51,753 nucleotides of DNA. Origin: Planctomycetota bacterium. Lineage in GTDB: Bacteria > Planctomycetota > Planctomycetia > Pirellulales > Lacipirellulaceae. Of the stretch, positions 3,851-18,513 are shown piece after piece (positions within the stretch are counted from its first letter, which is position 1; each line of letters begins with the position of its first letter). The notes below the pieces were generated by a model. The model saw only the letters and a list, made by a program, of their open reading frames with translations, was not told the origin of the DNA and ran no database searches. Location of the stretch: assembly GCA_039190745.1 (NCBI GenBank), contig JBCCXZ010000024.1, positions 1 through 51,753 of the forward strand. The letters run 5' to 3'. Made by a program: the position numbers and the translations under genes.

Positions 3851-3879
3851 TTGAAAATGAACAAGCGTTCACTTATAAT
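3851..3879 (+). promoter_or_regulatory. Near-consensus sigma70 promoter with a palindromic operator in the spacer
   Basis: TTGAAA(3851-56)-N17-TATAAT(3874-79); spacer contains TGAAC-N4-GTTCA; no + strand CDS follows. Confidence 0.7.
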
Positions 3880-4118
3880 CTAGGTCGAGGCTAACCGCTC
3901 TTTGACAACCCAACACCACGCTCCCCGCAGGCAAACCCGCCTAGCGGTTGTGACCGTTCGCGCCCACAAGGCGCCCGCAGAACCTCAACGCGTTCTGACC
4001 GGATTTGAGAACGAGATACCGCAGATTTTCAGCTTGAACGGCTAATCGATCCCGACAAAACCCAACGACTTCTGCAAAGCCCCCAGGCACAAAACGCCCA
4101 GCGTTTTGTCGCCCCACT

Positions 4119-4145
4119 CCTAGCCGCCGACCTACGCGTCGGCGG
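4119..4145 (+). repeat. REP-like hairpin family B (CCTAGCCGYCGACCTACGCGTCGRCGG)
   Basis: Four copies: 4119-4145, 10605-10631, 11843-11869 (+) and 18484-18510 (-); stem covaries CCGCCGAC/GTCGGCGG vs CCGTCGAC/GTCGACGG. Confidence 0.9.
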
Positions 4146-4239
4146 TCCGGGAAGCACGCACGAGGACAGAAGCCCCAAGAATTGACCGCCCAGAGCGTGA
4201 ACGCTCTCTGAGCGCCAAAAGCCAAGACCCGCAAGCCTC

Positions 4240-10598: not shown

Positions 10599-10712
10599 TC
10601 CGTTCCTAGCCGTCGACCTACGCGTCGACGGAACCCGATACCAACCCCCAACCCCGCGAAGAAGACCACACGGATTTTCGTTGAAATTGGGCCAGCAACT
10701 CTGCTAGACAAG
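10599..10712 (+). repeat. 114-bp direct repeat, copy 1 (REP-B hairpin + TTGAAA-N18-TAGACA promoter-like end)
   Basis: 104/114 identical by hand alignment to 11837-11950. Confidence 0.92.
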
Positions 10713-10716
10713 CTTT

Positions 10717-11847
10717 ATGCCCCCGCCTCGAACTCCACCCGCTTGCGGCCAGCCCAAGCTCCACATCGTCTTACCCATTCTGACTGCGTCAGTAGGAGCG
10801 TGCCTGGCCTCCTGCGACAGCCAAGCTGTTGCAGGCTTGGTAGACGAGCGTCCTTGGGTAGAGAAATCCGCGGACGGAAGACTCTTGCTCGCCATGCTCG
10901 ACTCACCCGACCCAGATCGGTTTGAGTTACCCATTTCCAGTGACACGAGGAAGCTGTTCCCAAAAAACGGCATCTACAGAAAAGGGCCTTCTGGGTGGAA
11001 ACTCGATTGGGTCTTGCCCTACCGCCCGCCTTGCTACGGGGTCGAGTTCTCCCAAGACGGAAAAAGCGTCCTCCTCTACCGGGACGACACGACACACACT
11101 GTCAGCAACATCCCAGTGGGAGCGTTCCTAGACTTCTACCATTCGAACGGCGAGAACAGGCTGTGGCAGGAATGGGACATGACTTGGGGGTGGTTTCTAA
11201 AAGCAGCACTAAACCGTTTGCTCAACCAGCCGACCCATCTGGAATGGACAACCGCCAATCGCATTCCTTCGTCTGATGAGTTCTTGGTGAAGACAAACCA
11301 AGGCGAAGAGTTCGTGTTCGATCTTCGAACCGGCGACCTGATCCGCAGCCGCTCAACCTGGAGCCGAGCCGCGTTGTTGCTGGGAGTCGCAACACTCGCG
11401 ATGACTCTGTTCCTCTCAAGGCCCAGAGCTAGAGCAATTGAGCCTCAATCCAAGATGCATTATGGCTTTGCCGTAGGGGAACTCCTAGCAACCACGACGA
11501 TGGTCGCAATCCTCATGGTAATCGGCTCACAGTCCCTCAAGTTGCTTGGCCTTGCTTTGGCGGCCGCTTGTTCTGGAGGCCTCCTGGCCCTTCCGCTCTC
11601 ATTGACTCGAAGAGCCGCAATGCTTGGTTCCATCCTGAGCGTCTGTTACGCATCCCTGAGCCTGATCTTTTCGAGCATGATCTGCGAACCACTACTCTGG
11701 GAGCTGAAGCGTATTCATGACGGTGAGGTTCTCGGCGTGTTCCTGACAGCCATCTTCATTGGCGTACTCATCGGAGCGATCTTGGGAGGCTTGATCGCAA
11801 GAAGCAACCAGCCTATCTGCCCAGAACCTCAGGCAATCCGTTCCTAG
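10717..11847 (+). CDS. Hypothetical membrane protein (soluble N-terminal domain + about 5 C-terminal TM helices)
   Basis: 376-aa ORF with atypical AT-richer codon use; stop TAG lies inside repeat copy 2. Confidence 0.65.
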   Translation: MPPPRTPPACGQPKLHIVLPILTASVGACLASCDSQAVAGLVDERPWVEKSADGRLLLAMLDSPDPDRFELPISSDTRKLFPKNGIYRKGPSGWKLDWVLPYRPPCYGVEFSQDGKSVLLYRDDTTHTVSNIPVGAFLDFYHSNGENRLWQEWDMTWGWFLKAALNRLLNQPTHLEWTTANRIPSSDEFLVKTNQGEEFVFDLRTGDLIRSRSTWSRAALLLGVATLAMTLFLSRPRARAIEPQSKMHYGFAVGELLATTTMVAILMVIGSQSLKLLGLALAAACSGGLLALPLSLTRRAAMLGSILSVCYASLSLIFSSMICEPLLWELKRIHDGEVLGVFLTAIFIGVLIGAILGGLIARSNQPICPEPQAIRS

Positions 11848-12193
11848 CCGTCGACCTACGCGTCGACGGCCGCCAAAACCAGCCTCCAACCCCGCAAAGA
11901 AATCCACACGGATTTTCGTTGAAATTGGGCCAGCAACTCTGCTAGACAAGAGGCTGCAGACGAGAAGCAGCTCGCTACAAGGGATGGGCCATTCAGCAGC
12001 CCATCTGCGTCCATCCGCGTTCATCAACCCCGCTTCTGACCGCGAAAACTCAACACAAACGAACGCAAACTCGAAAAGTTAAGACCGGTGCGATCCCAGC
12101 AAACACCGAAGAACAAAAAGCGCACGAAAAAGACCCGCGACAAAACGCCCGACTTTTGGCGTATCGCCGCGTCTAGCTGTTTTCGTGCCCAAA
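11837..12193 (+). repeat. ~357-bp composite non-coding element; first 114 bp form direct repeat copy 2
   Basis: Colinear homology to 18151-18513 (-): REP-B, GTTGAAAWTGGGCCAG, ATCYGCGTYC repeats, TTCTGACC, AAAACTC, AACGAACG and a 58-bp 3' block with 54/58 identity. Confidence 0.88.
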
Positions 12194-12209
12194 CGACAGA
12201 AGTCGAGCG

Positions 12210-13723: not shown

Positions 13724-15139
13724 ATGCACCGAACCGTCCTCCCCGCGGTCGCCATCTCTCTCCTGCTATGCACCCCGGCGACCGGCCAGCCGCTCGCGGC
13801 CGGCGGCCTCCGCGAGGCGTTAACTAAGCTCGTCGACAACCATCCGACAGCGCGCCGGACAACGGTCTGCCTGAAGGTCGTTGACCTCGAGACCGGTGAG
13901 GTCCTCTACGACCGCGGCGGCGACAGGCTGCTCGTCCCAGCGTCAAACCTAAAGATCTACACCACCGCCTGCGCACTGGACCGTTTCGGGCCGGACCGCC
14001 GATTCGAAACGAAACTGCAAATCCGTGGCGAGATGGTCGCGAGCGCGCTCACCGGCGAGATCGTGCTCGTAGGCGGCGGCGACGCGATGCTCAGCACCGC
14101 CGCCCTAGGCAAACTTGCCGACTGGGTCGCCAAGGAAGCCGGCGTCCGGAAACTTGTGGGCCGCGTACGAGCCGATCAGTCGCGTTACGCCTCCCCGCTC
14201 AAAGGGCCGGGCTGGATGTGGGACGACGAGCCGGACTACTACAACATGTCCGTTACCCCGCTGATGCTGGATTTCAACGTCCTGAGGGTCCGCCTGGAAT
14301 CGTCCGCGGGCGGCAAACCAACCGCTCGCCTCGTCCCGCCGGCAAGCTACCCGCCACTGAGTTGGTCGCACCAGGCAGGGTCGGCAAACAGTTGGATCGA
14401 CCGCGAACCTTTCACCGACGCTTTTTTGCTGAGCAATCCGAGCTCGCTCGAATCGTCACTCGAAGAGCGGGTCACCATGGATGATCCGTCGCCGTGGATC
14501 GAGTCGGTATTCAAACATCAATTGCAACCCCGCGTCATCGAGATTGAACATGCGGACCACTCTAGAGTTCTACCGTTTGTGAGTGAACATTCGCGCCCTG
14601 GCGCTTCGCTCGCGGAGACCGTCAAGCACTTCAACCGCGTCAGCGAGAACGCGGTCGGCGAGGTGCTGCTCCATGAGCTGGCAATCGACGCCGGCCGGGA
14701 ACAGCCAGCGTGGTCGGCCGGCGCCTCGGTCATCAGCGATTGGCTCGTCGGAGTTGCAGGATTAGAGCGAGGATCGTTCCGGCTCGTCGACGGTTCGGGG
14801 CTCTCTCGTTACAACCTGATTTCCGCCGACTCGTCGATCCGCCTTTTGCAGTACATGCACAAGCACCCGACCAGTTCCGTTTTCTACGAAGCATTGCCGA
14901 AATACGGAGTCGAGGTAGCGGCCCCGTCGGACTCCGAAAACAAAGAAGAACGGATCGCTGCGAAGCCGGGGGGGATGTCGAGCGTGTCGACCATCTCGGG
15001 TTACGCAGACACCCTCGGCGGCCGGAGGCTGGCTTTCTCGCTGCTGACAAACGGCTACATCGGATCGAACCGTCCAGTGATCGACCTACGCGGAAAGGTT
15101 TGGCAAACACTCGTCCGCTACCGCCCCAGTGACCAGTAG
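13724..15139 (+). CDS. dacB: D-Ala-D-Ala carboxypeptidase/endopeptidase, peptidase S13 (PBP4-like)
   Basis: PASNLK (SxxK), GGGD, SEN (SxN), DGSGLSRYN, KPG at the KTG position; signal peptide. Confidence 0.92.
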   Translation: MHRTVLPAVAISLLLCTPATGQPLAAGGLREALTKLVDNHPTARRTTVCLKVVDLETGEVLYDRGGDRLLVPASNLKIYTTACALDRFGPDRRFETKLQIRGEMVASALTGEIVLVGGGDAMLSTAALGKLADWVAKEAGVRKLVGRVRADQSRYASPLKGPGWMWDDEPDYYNMSVTPLMLDFNVLRVRLESSAGGKPTARLVPPASYPPLSWSHQAGSANSWIDREPFTDAFLLSNPSSLESSLEERVTMDDPSPWIESVFKHQLQPRVIEIEHADHSRVLPFVSEHSRPGASLAETVKHFNRVSENAVGEVLLHELAIDAGREQPAWSAGASVISDWLVGVAGLERGSFRLVDGSGLSRYNLISADSSIRLLQYMHKHPTSSVFYEALPKYGVEVAAPSDSENKEERIAAKPGGMSSVSTISGYADTLGGRRLAFSLLTNGYIGSNRPVIDLRGKVWQTLVRYRPSDQ

Positions 15140-15143
15140 CACC

Positions 15144-15845
15144 ATGCGATTTCTGTTGGCCTGTTTGGCCGCCTGCTTTGCGATTTCGATGACACCGATC
15201 CGACTGGTCGCCGCCGAGCGGGAAGAGGGCACTAGCCTCCCAGAAGGCTTCGTGTTTCTGGATGTTGCGGCGCCCACGATCGAGGTGGACCTGCGGTACT
15301 TCTCGAATCGGAATTTCGTTGGTAGCCGCGTTGATGGCTACGAAGTCGATCGTTGCATTGTGACGCAGGAAGCCGCCGAGGCGCTCGGTCGCGTACAGTC
15401 CGAGCTTTCGCCGCTCGGGCTGCGGCTGCTGGTGTTCGACGCCTATCGCCCTCAGCGTGCGGTCGACCACTTCGTGCGTTGGTCTCGGGCGCCGGAAGAC
15501 GACTCCACGAAGGCCGACTATTTCCCTGACTTCGGCCGTGGGGAGTTGTTTGATTTGGGCTACATCGCCGCTAAATCGGGGCATAGCCGGGGCAGCACAG
15601 TCGATCTTACCCTCGACGCCGCCGATGGTTCGGGCGAGTTGGACATGGGCGGCCCGTTCGACTTCTTCGGCGAACGCTCCGGCCACGACTACCGCGGGGC
15701 GACCTCTCAGCAGCGTGCGAATCGCTTGCTGTTGCGCACGCTGATGGAGAAGCACCGGTTCCGGGCCTACTCGAAGGAATGGTGGCACTATACGCTGGTG
15801 GACGAGCCCTTCCCGAACACCTACTTCGATTTCCCCATCCGATGA
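15144..15845 (+). CDS. ddpX: D-Ala-D-Ala dipeptidase (M15D, VanX/DdpX family) with signal peptide
   Basis: NFVG, DAYRP, SGHSRGSTVD, DMG..FDFF and EWWHY motifs. Confidence 0.93.
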   Translation: MRFLLACLAACFAISMTPIRLVAAEREEGTSLPEGFVFLDVAAPTIEVDLRYFSNRNFVGSRVDGYEVDRCIVTQEAAEALGRVQSELSPLGLRLLVFDAYRPQRAVDHFVRWSRAPEDDSTKADYFPDFGRGELFDLGYIAAKSGHSRGSTVDLTLDAADGSGELDMGGPFDFFGERSGHDYRGATSQQRANRLLLRTLMEKHRFRAYSKEWWHYTLVDEPFPNTYFDFPIR

Positions 15846-17047
15846 ATACGCAGATGACGTTTCTCCGCAGCCAAGTTGTCTGGGTTGGTTTCTTGGCATC
15901 TTTACTCGCCTTGTGTCTGGTGAGTGACCAGGGCCAAGCCAACGACAGCGGCCCCGCGATCGCGGCGGAGCCTGAGGTTGACTCGCGATTGGTCGCCTTG
16001 GCGAAGCGGGTGGAACCGGAGTTGGCTGGTCGCGAAGCGCTGCTGTCCCATTACGTCGACTACTACCGGCGATCGATGGTGAACGACACCCGGCTGGTGG
16101 CGTTCAACGTAACGGCCTTGGCAGACGGCGACGGGGGCGTGACCCTCGGGGGTTACTGCGAGTTCGAAGAATCTCGCCAGGGGGTTGAGGGGTATTTGGC
16201 GGCGATGGGCTTCGACCGCATCGAGAACGAGATCGAAATCGTACCTTCCGCTTCCTTGGGCGAACAACGGTTCGCGGTCGTGAAGGTCGAGAGCACACTG
16301 AGCTACGCCTCGCCGGATGAAGGTGAGGTGGTGACCGACTGCCTGCTCGGGGAGCCGCTGTTTTTGCTCTCTGCGACGGCCGGGCACTTCCTGGCCCACA
16401 GCGGCGAGGGTTACCTGGGGTACATCCGGGTGGCCGACGTCGAGCGGCTGAGCGAGGCCGAGTTCACCCAGTACCTGAGCGGTCCGACGGTCGTGATGAA
16501 GCAGGACCTGGAGGACGAGGGCGTTCTGCTGCCGACCGGCGGGCGTCTGAGGTTGGTTTCGCACAGCGACGGCGGGGTAACCGCCGAGCTGCCCGGAGCC
16601 GGTGAGTTTGGTTTCGCGGATTCGTACTGCGAGATCAGCCGCGAAGCTGCGCCGTGGGCGCCGGGCGTCATTGAGGCGGCGTCGGCGATGCGGGGGACGC
16701 CCTACCTCTGGGGCGGGAAGACCGCGAAGGGGGTCGACTGCTCCGGGCTGGTGCAGGTGGCGTTTGCCGGCTCTGGGGTCAGCGTGCCGCGGGACGCGGA
16801 TCAGCAGTTCAACGTGGGCCAGCTGACGGCCACGCGTTGGTGCCGCGGCGGGATGCGGGCCGGCGACACGATGTACTTCATCAATGATTACGGCAAGATC
16901 AGCCACACGGCGATCTACCTGGGCGGCGATCGTTACTTGCACGCCCAGATGCCGGAGGTTGGGGTCAACAGTCTGGACCCAGCGGACCCTACCTACCTCG
17001 AGAATCGCGACCTGACGTTCGTGTTCGCGAAGCGGTTTCTCGACTGA
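15842..17047 (+). CDS. NlpC/P60 (C40) peptidase with BON-like and SH3-like N-terminal modules (YkfC/dipeptidyl peptidase VI-like)
   Basis: PYLWGG..GVDCSG, PRDADQQ, HTAIYLG and YLHA motifs; ATGA overlap with ddpX stop. Confidence 0.9.
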   Translation: MNTQMTFLRSQVVWVGFLASLLALCLVSDQGQANDSGPAIAAEPEVDSRLVALAKRVEPELAGREALLSHYVDYYRRSMVNDTRLVAFNVTALADGDGGVTLGGYCEFEESRQGVEGYLAAMGFDRIENEIEIVPSASLGEQRFAVVKVESTLSYASPDEGEVVTDCLLGEPLFLLSATAGHFLAHSGEGYLGYIRVADVERLSEAEFTQYLSGPTVVMKQDLEDEGVLLPTGGRLRLVSHSDGGVTAELPGAGEFGFADSYCEISREAAPWAPGVIEAASAMRGTPYLWGGKTAKGVDCSGLVQVAFAGSGVSVPRDADQQFNVGQLTATRWCRGGMRAGDTMYFINDYGKISHTAIYLGGDRYLHAQMPEVGVNSLDPADPTYLENRDLTFVFAKRFLD

Positions 17048-17152
17048 CTTCCGGGCCACGGATCGGCCTTCTTGCTGCCCGTCCGGCCTCTGCCGGGCGT
17101 GGTCTTCCTGCCTTTGCTCTTTGAGCTCCCACCTTGTGATTGGAAGGATCTT

Positions 17153-18091
17153 ATGTGTGCTTTGGATTTCCCCGGTCGGCTGGTTAGCTGGTCGCTGATG
17201 TTGTGTTGTGTGTTCGTTGCCCCGGCCCGCGGCGAGGCGGGGCCGGACGCGGTTGAGGTTTCCGCGATTGAGGTTCCTGCGTCTGACCCGGCGACCGTCG
17301 AAGTCGGCGTGGTGCGTTGGTTGACTTCGTACACCGAGGCCTACGCCGCGGCTCAAGAATCCCGGCAGATGCTGTTGATTAACTTTGTGCCGCTGGGCGA
17401 GAGCTCGCAGCAGAGTTCTTTGGAGGCGAAGATCGCTGCGGATGAGTCGCTGCGTGAGCGGCTCGGCGGGTTCACGCTGTTGCGGTTGCAGGACGAGACG
17501 CCCGGCGAAGGCCCGGCTTCGCGGCTGCTGGGCCACGCGGCGTTCTCGCCGATGAAGGGCGACTCGGGCGTCGCGGTGTTGGACCTGGCCAGCCAAGGCG
17601 AGGAGTACTCCGGGCGGGTCGTGAGTGCTTTCCCGTACCGCTCGGGGAAGTACTACCGGTGGCAGTGCGATTACCTGCCGGTGATCCTGGGGCTGCCGCA
17701 GGGGACGCTCTCGCAGCGGACGATGGTGTGGGCCGTGCGGGTGCACCCGGAACGTCCCGCGAGCACGGGCGGCGAGATGCACCCGGGGATCGCGGACGCG
17801 GCGGGGCGGCACTCGGCTTACCAGGCGAGCATCCGGAACCAGGGGCACCACAACTGGGGCCGGCGTTCGGGTGAGATTCAGTCGATGGCCGGGACGTTCA
17901 AGGCCGTGGAGGTCGTGGCGGAGAGCTGGCCGAACCAGGACTTGATCGACTCGTGCCTGGACTGCGTGGCGAGCTGGCGGCACTCGTCGGGCCATTGGGG
18001 CGCGGTCCGCAGCCCGCACCGGCTGTACGGCTACGACATCCGCCGGGGGAGCAACGGGATCTGGTACGGGACGGGGATCTTTGCGGACTGA
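17153..18091 (+). CDS. Secreted protein: thioredoxin-like N-domain (no CxxC) + CAP/SCP-like C-domain
   Basis: WLTSY..A...A....MLLINF; C-terminal A..HS..Q..GHH, EVVAE, W..S.GH and G.WY pattern. Confidence 0.7.
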   Translation: MCALDFPGRLVSWSLMLCCVFVAPARGEAGPDAVEVSAIEVPASDPATVEVGVVRWLTSYTEAYAAAQESRQMLLINFVPLGESSQQSSLEAKIAADESLRERLGGFTLLRLQDETPGEGPASRLLGHAAFSPMKGDSGVAVLDLASQGEEYSGRVVSAFPYRSGKYYRWQCDYLPVILGLPQGTLSQRTMVWAVRVHPERPASTGGEMHPGIADAAGRHSAYQASIRNQGHHNWGRRSGEIQSMAGTFKAVEVVAESWPNQDLIDSCLDCVASWRHSSGHWGAVRSPHRLYGYDIRRGSNGIWYGTGIFAD

Positions 18092-18150
18092 GCCCCTAAC
18101 TGAGCCCCCAACTGGGCCCGTCGGCTGAGGTCGGTGGGCCTGGTTTTGTC

Positions 18151-18513
18151 TTTGGGCACGAAAACGGGTACACGCGGCGATACGCCAAAAGTCGGGCGTA
18201 TTGTCGCGTGTTTTTTGTTGGGGCTCCTTGTTTCTTAGGGCGGGCCGGCTTGGCATGGGACTAAATGGGGGTGACTTTACGTTCGTTGTTGGCGAGTTTT
18301 TGGGGTCAGAAAGGAAACAGCCACAGATGGACGCGGATGAACGCTGATGACGGAAGAATCATAGGGCGGGGGACTCTGAAGTAAGACCATAATAGTGTTC
18401 TCTTGTATACTCCATGGACTGGCCCATTTTCAACGGAAAAGTGCTTCGCAGAGCGGGCGGCGCAGCGCGTATCGGCGAGGCAGACGCCGACGCGTAGGTC
18501 GGCGGCTAGGAAC
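18151..18513 (-). repeat. Second full copy of the composite non-coding element
   Basis: Reverse complement aligns colinearly with 11837-12193; lies between convergent genes. Confidence 0.88.

Follow-up and report, generated by a model that had tools for sequence, protein, structure and literature searches.

What is the non-coding DNA at the end of the gene that closes at position 11847, and what does a second, reversed copy of it do some 6 kb away? The window (the whole 51,753-nt stretch analysed here) is contig C24 of a 3.9-Mb planctomycete genome with 65% G+C, here called G000; the other G-numbers denote Lacipirellulaceae genomes, G001 being the sister species in the same genus, while C-numbers denote contigs and L-numbers individual loci. 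The initial annotation had placed two colinear homologues at 11837-12193 (+) and 18151-18513 (-), both flanked by convergent ORFs and identical at 54 of 58 nt in their 3' blocks, and all of this proved right. Some details had to be redrawn. The distance from TTCTGACC to the 3' block does differ by just 1 nt between the copies, but measured from the motif start it is 102 and 103 nt and not 106 and 107; the order of the parts was correctly given, but the 3' end lies ~8 nt further out, at a second GACA(A/G)AA (12195-12201 and 18150-18144); and the REP hairpin, which the two copies indeed share, is a passenger in this pair and not a constant component of the family. A third copy lies in the same window, and the features are as follows.

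3851-4220, + strand: copy C, the third copy in the window, of the longer type B
Parts of copy C, + strand: promoter TTGAAA-17-TATAAT; boxA-like motif 3897-3908; array 4054-4220; internal REP at 4119
10599-10712, + strand: direct repeat of 11837-11950 (REP and promoter), 104/114 identical, ending 2 nt past the -10 hexamer
10717-11847, + strand: inserted gene of 376 aa between the two promoter copies, its ATG 6 nt past the -10 hexamer
11840-11870, + strand: REP-type hairpin of copy A, 5' of the promoter and shared with copy B
11919-11948, + strand: promoter-like block of copy A, with a putative -35 TTGAAA, the conserved spacer word GGGCCAG and a -10-like TAGACA
11949-12033, + strand: copy A's variable stretch, which has short repeats of 10 nt at 12001-12025 and no boxA
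12034-12201, + strand: fixed-length half-site array of copy A
Sites in the array of copy A, + strand: degenerate sites at 12034, 12064 and 12079; GACAAAA at 12139; 23-nt core at 12151-12173; closing sites at 12187 and 12195
18144-18513, - strand: copy B, the facing partner of copy A, ~6 kb off
Parts of copy B, - strand: REP 18513-18485; -35 at 18433; -10 TATACA at 18409; core 18193-18171; last half-site 18150-18144

Between the facing copies lies a peptidoglycan-peptide processing cluster (13724-18091), which consists of a D-Ala-D-Ala carboxypeptidase (S13), a D-Ala-D-Ala dipeptidase (M15), an NlpC/P60-SH3 protein and one further ORF.

We read the element as a non-autonomous mobile DNA element that carries a protein-binding array and would be moved by a protein acting in trans, and we give this reading a probability of about 0.55. 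In its own genome the element is a repeat far above chance: the 3' block has 46 matches in G000 at E<1e-4 and 48 at E<1e-2 by iterated nhmmer, which are the type A copies, and the longer type B adds 20 copies in G000 and 26 in G001, so that the total comes to ~70 (46-48 type A and 20 type B) in G000 and 79 in G001. A search with the core pattern returned 45 matches in G000 and 52 in G001, 39 other relatives giving no match, and the exact 23-nt core was found in one other assembly of the species collection, namely G001. Both copy A and copy B have orthologues there, which are mutual closest paralogues out of 45. As for the genomic context, 45 type A copies divide by a simple gene caller into four gene-orientation classes of 13, 13, 10 and 9, and 13 of the 45 lie between convergent genes, as against 67 of 718 long intergenic regions. 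One type A subfamily has an extra 3' unit (in G001 L029:3122-3205, L053:3268-3343, L021, L033 and L050), and either adjoins tRNA-Ser and tRNA-Pro genes at their 3' ends or sits in regions that resemble islands and contain methylases and an IS4-like transposase.

The plan of the element consists of a sigma70-type promoter, a boxA in a subset of copies, a variable stretch filled with REPs, and then an array of opposed GGACAAAA/TTTTGTCC half-sites, which has a period of 76-77 nt and is nearly free of indels. Such rigidity extends over the last ~165 nt, and the middle part has diverged; in type A of G000 the period is 76 nt in 26 of the 33 scorable copies and 75 or 77 in the others. The half-sites form the palindrome GACAAAA-N7..11-TTYTGTC; an array has two to three units, and Tandem Repeats Finder makes no call.

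The promoter proposed by the initial annotation is backed at the level of sequence. A matrix built from 41 upstream blocks of G000 finds 64 sites in that genome, of which 43 are no more than 420 nt from a type A copy and most of the others head type B copies. The same matrix, trained on G000, also locates a site at up to this distance for 39 of 46 tested copies of G001. The block combines a -35 box, a conserved spacer word resembling GGCCAC and a TA(T/A/C/G)ACA or GATAAT; in copy A it is nearly identical in the G001 orthologue, and a consensus promoter scan did not call its TAGACA promoter. Exact boxA-like matches number 17 in G000, of which 10 lie 24-28 nt past the -10 box of a called promoter, four come after a promoter that can be recognised by eye, one belongs to a 16S leader and two lie elsewhere. 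The same motif stands 185-239 nt upstream of 16S in all four relatives that have a 16S gene (five were searched), and when two mismatches at most are allowed, it is found after 14 of 21 non-type-A promoters versus 4 of 43 type A promoters, copies A and B both being without it. According to the available part of the source, boxA serves in E. coli to load the Nus antitermination complex, and the element's motif is the one in the 16S leaders of the host family, but unlike the boxA of rrn and CRISPR leaders described there, it stands ahead of a dispersed repeat and in a subset of copies only (PMC13753749). The strict combination of promoter and boxA matched in G000 only among 151 genomes of the order. 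The promoter of a dinB-like gene and some element promoters have a TGTACA-like palindrome directly past the -10 box (L024:1699-2922; G000 C34 near 6150), which we presume may be an SOS operator.

From such features the promoter-like block, together with boxA in some copies, may cause the element to be transcribed, and one could suppose that the product itself is what matters, as a multi-copy and largely unstructured RNA whose repeated short motifs titrate or guide a protein. The frequent promoter, the boxA after 14/21 non-type-A promoters and in 4/4 16S leaders, and an A/C-rich + strand all suit such an RNA; however, boxA is nearly absent from type A promoters (the 4/43 above), there is no evident terminator past the array, the strict 76-nt spacing would be more typical of double-stranded DNA geometry, and the facing pairs described below are left unexplained, so we consider this RNA unlikely.

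A coding role is ruled out, as no frame is kept and the changes have no codon phase: across 48 copies each of the six frames stays open in just 5-13, and substitutions are equal at all codon phases. A short protein motif of repeat-linked hypothetical genes gave two unrelated matches.

The initial annotation had further inferred a structured RNA with covariation, on account of the blockwise conservation and of the stems proposed in the 3' block. It is true that conservation comes in blocks, that the core holds an invariant hairpin of three pairs, that the long stem TTTTGGC/GCCAAAA is complementary in 91% of cells, and that type B cores fold with a mean z of -1.8, the internal REP included. However, the proposed stems are peculiar to the window copies: in a set of 94 copies, three of the inner stem's seven pairs can form in no more than 11-33%, and for the outer 'compensatory' stem, which has four pairs, the share is 34-69%. 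Across the family no compensatory support could be found, since the top covarying column pairs in the 94 copies are not compensating base pairs, RNAalifold gave three invariant pairs with no compensatory change for 48 type A copies and no pair at all for 18 type B copies, and the best long stem was no better than shuffles (155/500), its variable pair being broken in 24 of 48 copies. In copies of two other genera, G216 (31 copies) and G175 (15 copies), the + strand folds have 0/713 and 0/524 compensatory cells, and on the - strand there are one and two. Mismatches in the arms on the + strand are A.C 19, C.C 12 and C.T 8, versus G.T 2. The folding z is -1.2 for both window copies and on average -0.26 for 24 type A copies, and Rfam returned nothing at gathering score, with sub-threshold matches only. 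As the covariation fails family-wide, a structured RNA becomes very improbable, and this reading is largely refuted already. Length and spacing are conserved and pairing is not, which would fit protein sites on duplex DNA.

The other proposal of the initial annotation, that of a non-autonomous element family or of recombination sites, is strengthened by the dozens of copies, by empty sites in relatives, by an inversion between copies and by gene insertions at the promoter. Unoccupied sites, which it had suggested looking for, were found in three settings: G000 C34 compared with G001 L024, five same-genus relatives of G216, and the nqrA-sucC site of seven outgroups. Copies of G216 and G175 have sharp boundaries and unrelated flanks, and at one site the element is present in two genera as well as in two metagenome contigs. 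For the ends, those of 25 G216 copies are not complementary, and likewise in G175, so terminal inverted repeats were not detected there; a target-site duplication was not visible in the 25 G216 copies, the empty sites elsewhere being strongly diverged.

Of 53 known G001 copies 46 were fetched, of which 33 map to one G000 copy each; after one paralogous match was dropped, 32 orthologous pairs remained. Their identity is 96% in the core, 85% in the 3' block and 66% in the variable stretch, compared with 57% at third codon positions of the neighbouring gene dacB. Empty sites and a site shared between genera thus indicate that the family moved and that fixed copies are held by conversion or selection; that the copies are old and have been retained speaks against the mobile-element reading, as dead parasitic copies should decay unless one of these two acts. 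Moreover, the region between one pair of facing copies is inverted (G000 C17 versus G001 L223), the only case among 14 pair regions compared, three of which have no G000 counterpart; in contigs of three runs, at only ~8x depth, there was no supported joint for a live inversion.

Outside the two sister species the element is patchy. A sequence-only model matched in 12 of 81 Lacipirellulaceae genomes, and the palindrome GACAAAA-N7..10-TTTTGTC is enriched in several genomes of the family and rare, in its strict form, outside it. The same plan is present in G003, G004, G014, G168, G175, G187, G199, G201, G215, G216, G218 and four metagenome contigs: on the left GGCCAAAA, the promoter, often boxA and a variable stretch of REPs or short repeats; on the right the half-sites in alternation, usually in steps of 75-79 nt, the last TTTTGTCC being followed by a near-invariant word that is specific to the genome. 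One oriented pattern applied to 99 family genomes gives 83, 55, 45, 28, 11, 11 and 9 matches in seven of them and 0-7 elsewhere (control 0-6), and genome-specific patterns give 63, 43 and 49 matches; large expansions are thus seen in a few genomes. Phages, plasmids and viral contigs had no match to the element, and the exact core was absent from metagenome contigs. A conserved 109-aa protein rich in Tyr and His, probably secreted and without a Pfam family, follows the element in two genera and two metagenome contigs (L054:2435-2761, L134, L301, L359).

The arrangement of the copies relative to each other is far from random. All 14 neighbouring pairs of type A closer than 21 kb in G001 are in facing orientation, an outcome reached in 0 of 100,000 strand permutations, and with type B included the facing pairs are 15 of 17 below 12 kb and 18 of 24 below 21 kb, one pair standing back-to-back. 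Random placement would give 3.4 facing pairs below 12 kb, with a maximum of 12 in 20,000 simulations, against the 15 observed. These distance thresholds were set after G001 had been inspected; in G168 and G004 (one genus) and G216, the facing pairs are 8 of 12 below 21 kb and 13 of 18 below 30 kb with none back-to-back (p=3e-5), and the bias therefore holds in three genera at distances of 2-30 kb.

Several origins of the pairing can be weighed. Gene orientation was rejected, all four contexts being used (13, 13, 10 and 9 of 45). A composite transposon or a replicative inversion was ruled out for the one pair tested: at least 10 outgroup genomes have nqr next to sucCD, colinear across the left copy, so that the block between those partners is not the mobile unit. 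Copies of the boxA-rich type B are paired less often than type A (5/26 versus 31/53, p=0.0015), which argues against simple antitermination-driven targeting and weakens the idea of boxA-driven read-through forming R-loops as targets. In 11 of 28 directed comparisons none of the 45 paralogues is closer than the facing partner; partners are not always sisters, as there are three A-B pairs and ranks as low as 40 of 45. One facing pair 4.4 kb apart (L227 and L040, G001:C4:212000-227000) has paralogous genes of 841 and 893 aa at its outer flanks and is a local inverted duplication of a gene end together with the element.

The pairs could also be kept for the sake of the host, whose own protein would bind the arrays and bring facing copies together into loops of 2-30 kb, with selection maintaining core and orientation and with mobility being secondary. 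Such chromosome-organising sites would account for the core being kept at 96% in orthologues versus 57% at third codon positions, for the absolute excess of facing pairs (15 versus 3.4), for pairs that join different subtypes and for the strict period; in the available part of its source, a nucleoid role is proposed for the 52-nt repeats of Bacillus as well (PMC8161180). On the other hand, most of the 99 family genomes show background counts (with one oriented pattern, which diverged versions may escape), 43 of the 79 G001 copies are without a facing partner within 21 kb, and a loop anchor needs neither promoter nor boxA. We therefore regard a host-kept organising role as doubtful, and continue with the mobile element.

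The two sides of the element differ in what happens next to them. Between G000 and G001, synteny breaks within ~2 kb on the promoter side in 17 of 29 scorable orthologous pairs and on the 3' side in 1 of 30 (p=3e-6), in a raw side-to-side comparison which has to be read with the longer intergenic DNA of the promoter side in mind. The window itself offers an example: the gene at 10717-11847 has 56% G+C versus 65% genome-wide and is absent from G001, where the 114-nt REP and promoter, repeated around the gene in G000, form a single copy. Its product matches no Pfam family, and among candidates of near length it has no homologue besides itself. Altogether four insertions, three of genes and one of a nested element, duplicate the local promoter and end in or just past the -10 box, namely the window gene (114-nt repeat), G000 C43 (~48 bp), G001 L020 (~37 bp) and the nested element of G175 L247 (16 bp); an exception is the tandem duplicate at L258, which extends ~25 nt beyond the -10 box. 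The junction would form where the promoter is melted, through illegitimate recombination aided by homology or through a specific nick, though selection for expression could produce the same picture. Lineage-specific genes on the promoter side in G001 include a RelA/SpoT-domain gene of 48% G+C, a Fic-domain gene and an LRR gene (L027:3439-4455, L032:1725-2711, L020:1480-2724).

The neighbourhood was also searched for a protein that could move the element. The 94 flanking proteins include one transposase, which belongs to a separate IS that has ends of its own; the interior of the elements shows no recurrent ORF family; and no cognate IS sharing the element ends was found among flanking genes. 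The IS4-like transposase beside L033 was rejected as the mobiliser, since it is part of a separate IS. The ATPase_2/DUF234 gene, which follows 4 of 10 AT-rich arrays considered below, was rejected as a helper, being present in 1 of 99 family genomes; none scored above the cut-off in five high-copy genomes, and AAA_14 gives weak general ATPase matches only. At L135 of G216 the 3' end of a transposase-like gene ends in short repeats 5' of the element; the gene resembles those of the IS110 family.

Since REP hairpins lie at set places in many copies, the element might be a by-product of REP/RAYT activity, that is, a composite built and moved by RAYT (Y1 HUH) transposases through the embedded hairpins. 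A RAYT with a REP array does lie just 5' of the element in 2 of 20 Y1 loci and of a promoter-like remnant in a third; however, these RAYTs bring REP families of their own, different from those of the element, REPs are absent from between the half-sites in G216, G175 and G168, and Y1 genes occur in 93 of 99 family genomes irrespective of element number, with none found in G000. We hold this origin to be quite improbable. Other REP-like inverted repeat families are abundant, for example at 896-972 of the window and genome-wide, yet no Y1/RAYT gene was found in the assembly. In G001 and G004, RAYT genes with their own REP arrays adjoin elements on the promoter side (L413:2428-2952, L414:1916-2401, L417), and in G216 a RAYT precedes the same gene as in G004, with no element there.

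Among described repeats, the closest kind would be the tandem repeats of Bacillus that have a constant length of 52 nt (Subirana and Messeguer, PMC8161180), any homology across phyla being conjectural. As the available part of that study describes them, they are non-coding and patchy, with dozens of loci per genome, have a fixed length and a variable sequence, and carry species-specific motifs with their reverse complement, as the element does; they are reported from Firmicutes only, with no obvious function described. Repeats of B. thermoamylovorans 30_53_11 carry TGTCC...GGACAAAA, and those of B. coagulans TTTTGTCC and GACAAAAC (PMC8161180). The planctomycete element differs from what is described there by its period of 75-77 nt, 52 nt being found only in related arrays elsewhere, by its 2-3 units as against 4-10, and by its built-in promoter, boxA, defined ends, facing rule and gene capture.

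Further likenesses exist to the neisserial intergenic mosaic elements with their dRS3/RS repeats, which in the available part of the source (PMC1797815) are short inverted repeats with an 8-nt centre placed between variable stretches of 50-150 nt, syntenic yet dynamic, and proposed as recombinase sites that aid the uptake of neighbouring genes. Recombination and gene uptake are seen at our element too; but dRS3 is ATTCCC-N8-GGGAAT, the element has GACAAAA-N7..11-TTYTGTC, a fixed spacer length, its own promoter and a polarity, and the phage-encoded recombinase known for dRS3 has no counterpart found for the element. Like MITEs such as the pneumococcal BOX, RUP and SPRITE, as far as the available text of PMC3049150 describes them, the element is non-coding, intergenic, lineage-specific and enriched between convergent genes, but it is without terminal inverted repeats and tight folding, and neither a target duplication, in the copies inspected, nor a cognate IS, among flanking genes, was seen. 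With REPs and REPtrons, in what is available of PMC3733652, it shares embedded GTAG/CTAG-type hairpins, with REPtrons sometimes on the promoter side; here, in contrast, REPs are optional passengers, and the conserved unit is the promoter with the half-site array. The element is a member of neither the 52-nt class nor the MITEs nor the mosaic elements. In the literature as far as it was accessible, we found no description of the element, of the plan of promoter and boxA or of the facing rule; supplements, or the earlier 1241-genome survey by the authors of the Bacillus study, could list planctomycete arrays.

Related arrays do occur in metagenomes. A three-site pattern gave 80 loci, from which 14 bacterial-looking ones with a clear array were taken and many plant-repeat-like ones left out. 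The period is 51-52 nt in 9 of 10 AT-rich loci, a value inside the 41-54 nt that the pattern permits, and two of these also have a 77-nt step; one planctomycete-type metagenome element has steps of 52 and 76 nt. The AT-rich arrays lie 5' of ATPase_2 (AAA, with DUF234) genes in 4 of 10 loci (L291, L330, L334, L338; 41-47% G+C; 52-nt period), and such GGACAAAA/TTTTGTCC arrays are possibly operators of this gene family; for the origin of the contigs our guess is Bacteroidales. A wider and more speculative reading, to which we attach only a low probability, would unite all these as one class of self-transcribed DNA arrays across phyla, with GGACAAAA/TTTTGTCC sites spaced by 52 and 77 nt in planctomycetes, in Bacillus and in AT-rich metagenome contigs, where one kind of protein would synapse facing copies kilobases apart; in planctomycetes the array would act as an orientation-dependent loop anchor and as an integron-like, dispersed landing site, at which incoming genes would be inserted at an open promoter and expressed at once.

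Returning to the non-autonomous mobile element, we can outline how it might work. A candidate recombinase or transposase, provided in trans, probably binds the opposed half-sites at their fixed spacing, and a new copy probably inserts a few kilobases downstream of one already present and in the opposite direction. Copies once fixed would recombine with each other, as the inversion seen attests, and conversion between partners may accompany it; they would also take up genes on their promoter side, with junctions at the -10 box.

To constant-length, variable-sequence repeats the planctomycete family adds defined ends, a promoter, a polarity, empty sites and a spacing rule, and with these in hand the binding protein can be sought directly. 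A facing bias over 2-30 kb calls for an unusual mechanism of targeting or else for selection that favours paired sites. Finally, repeated gene insertion at the element's -10 box would give a route of entry and of expression for genes at dozens of sites in planctomycete genomes.
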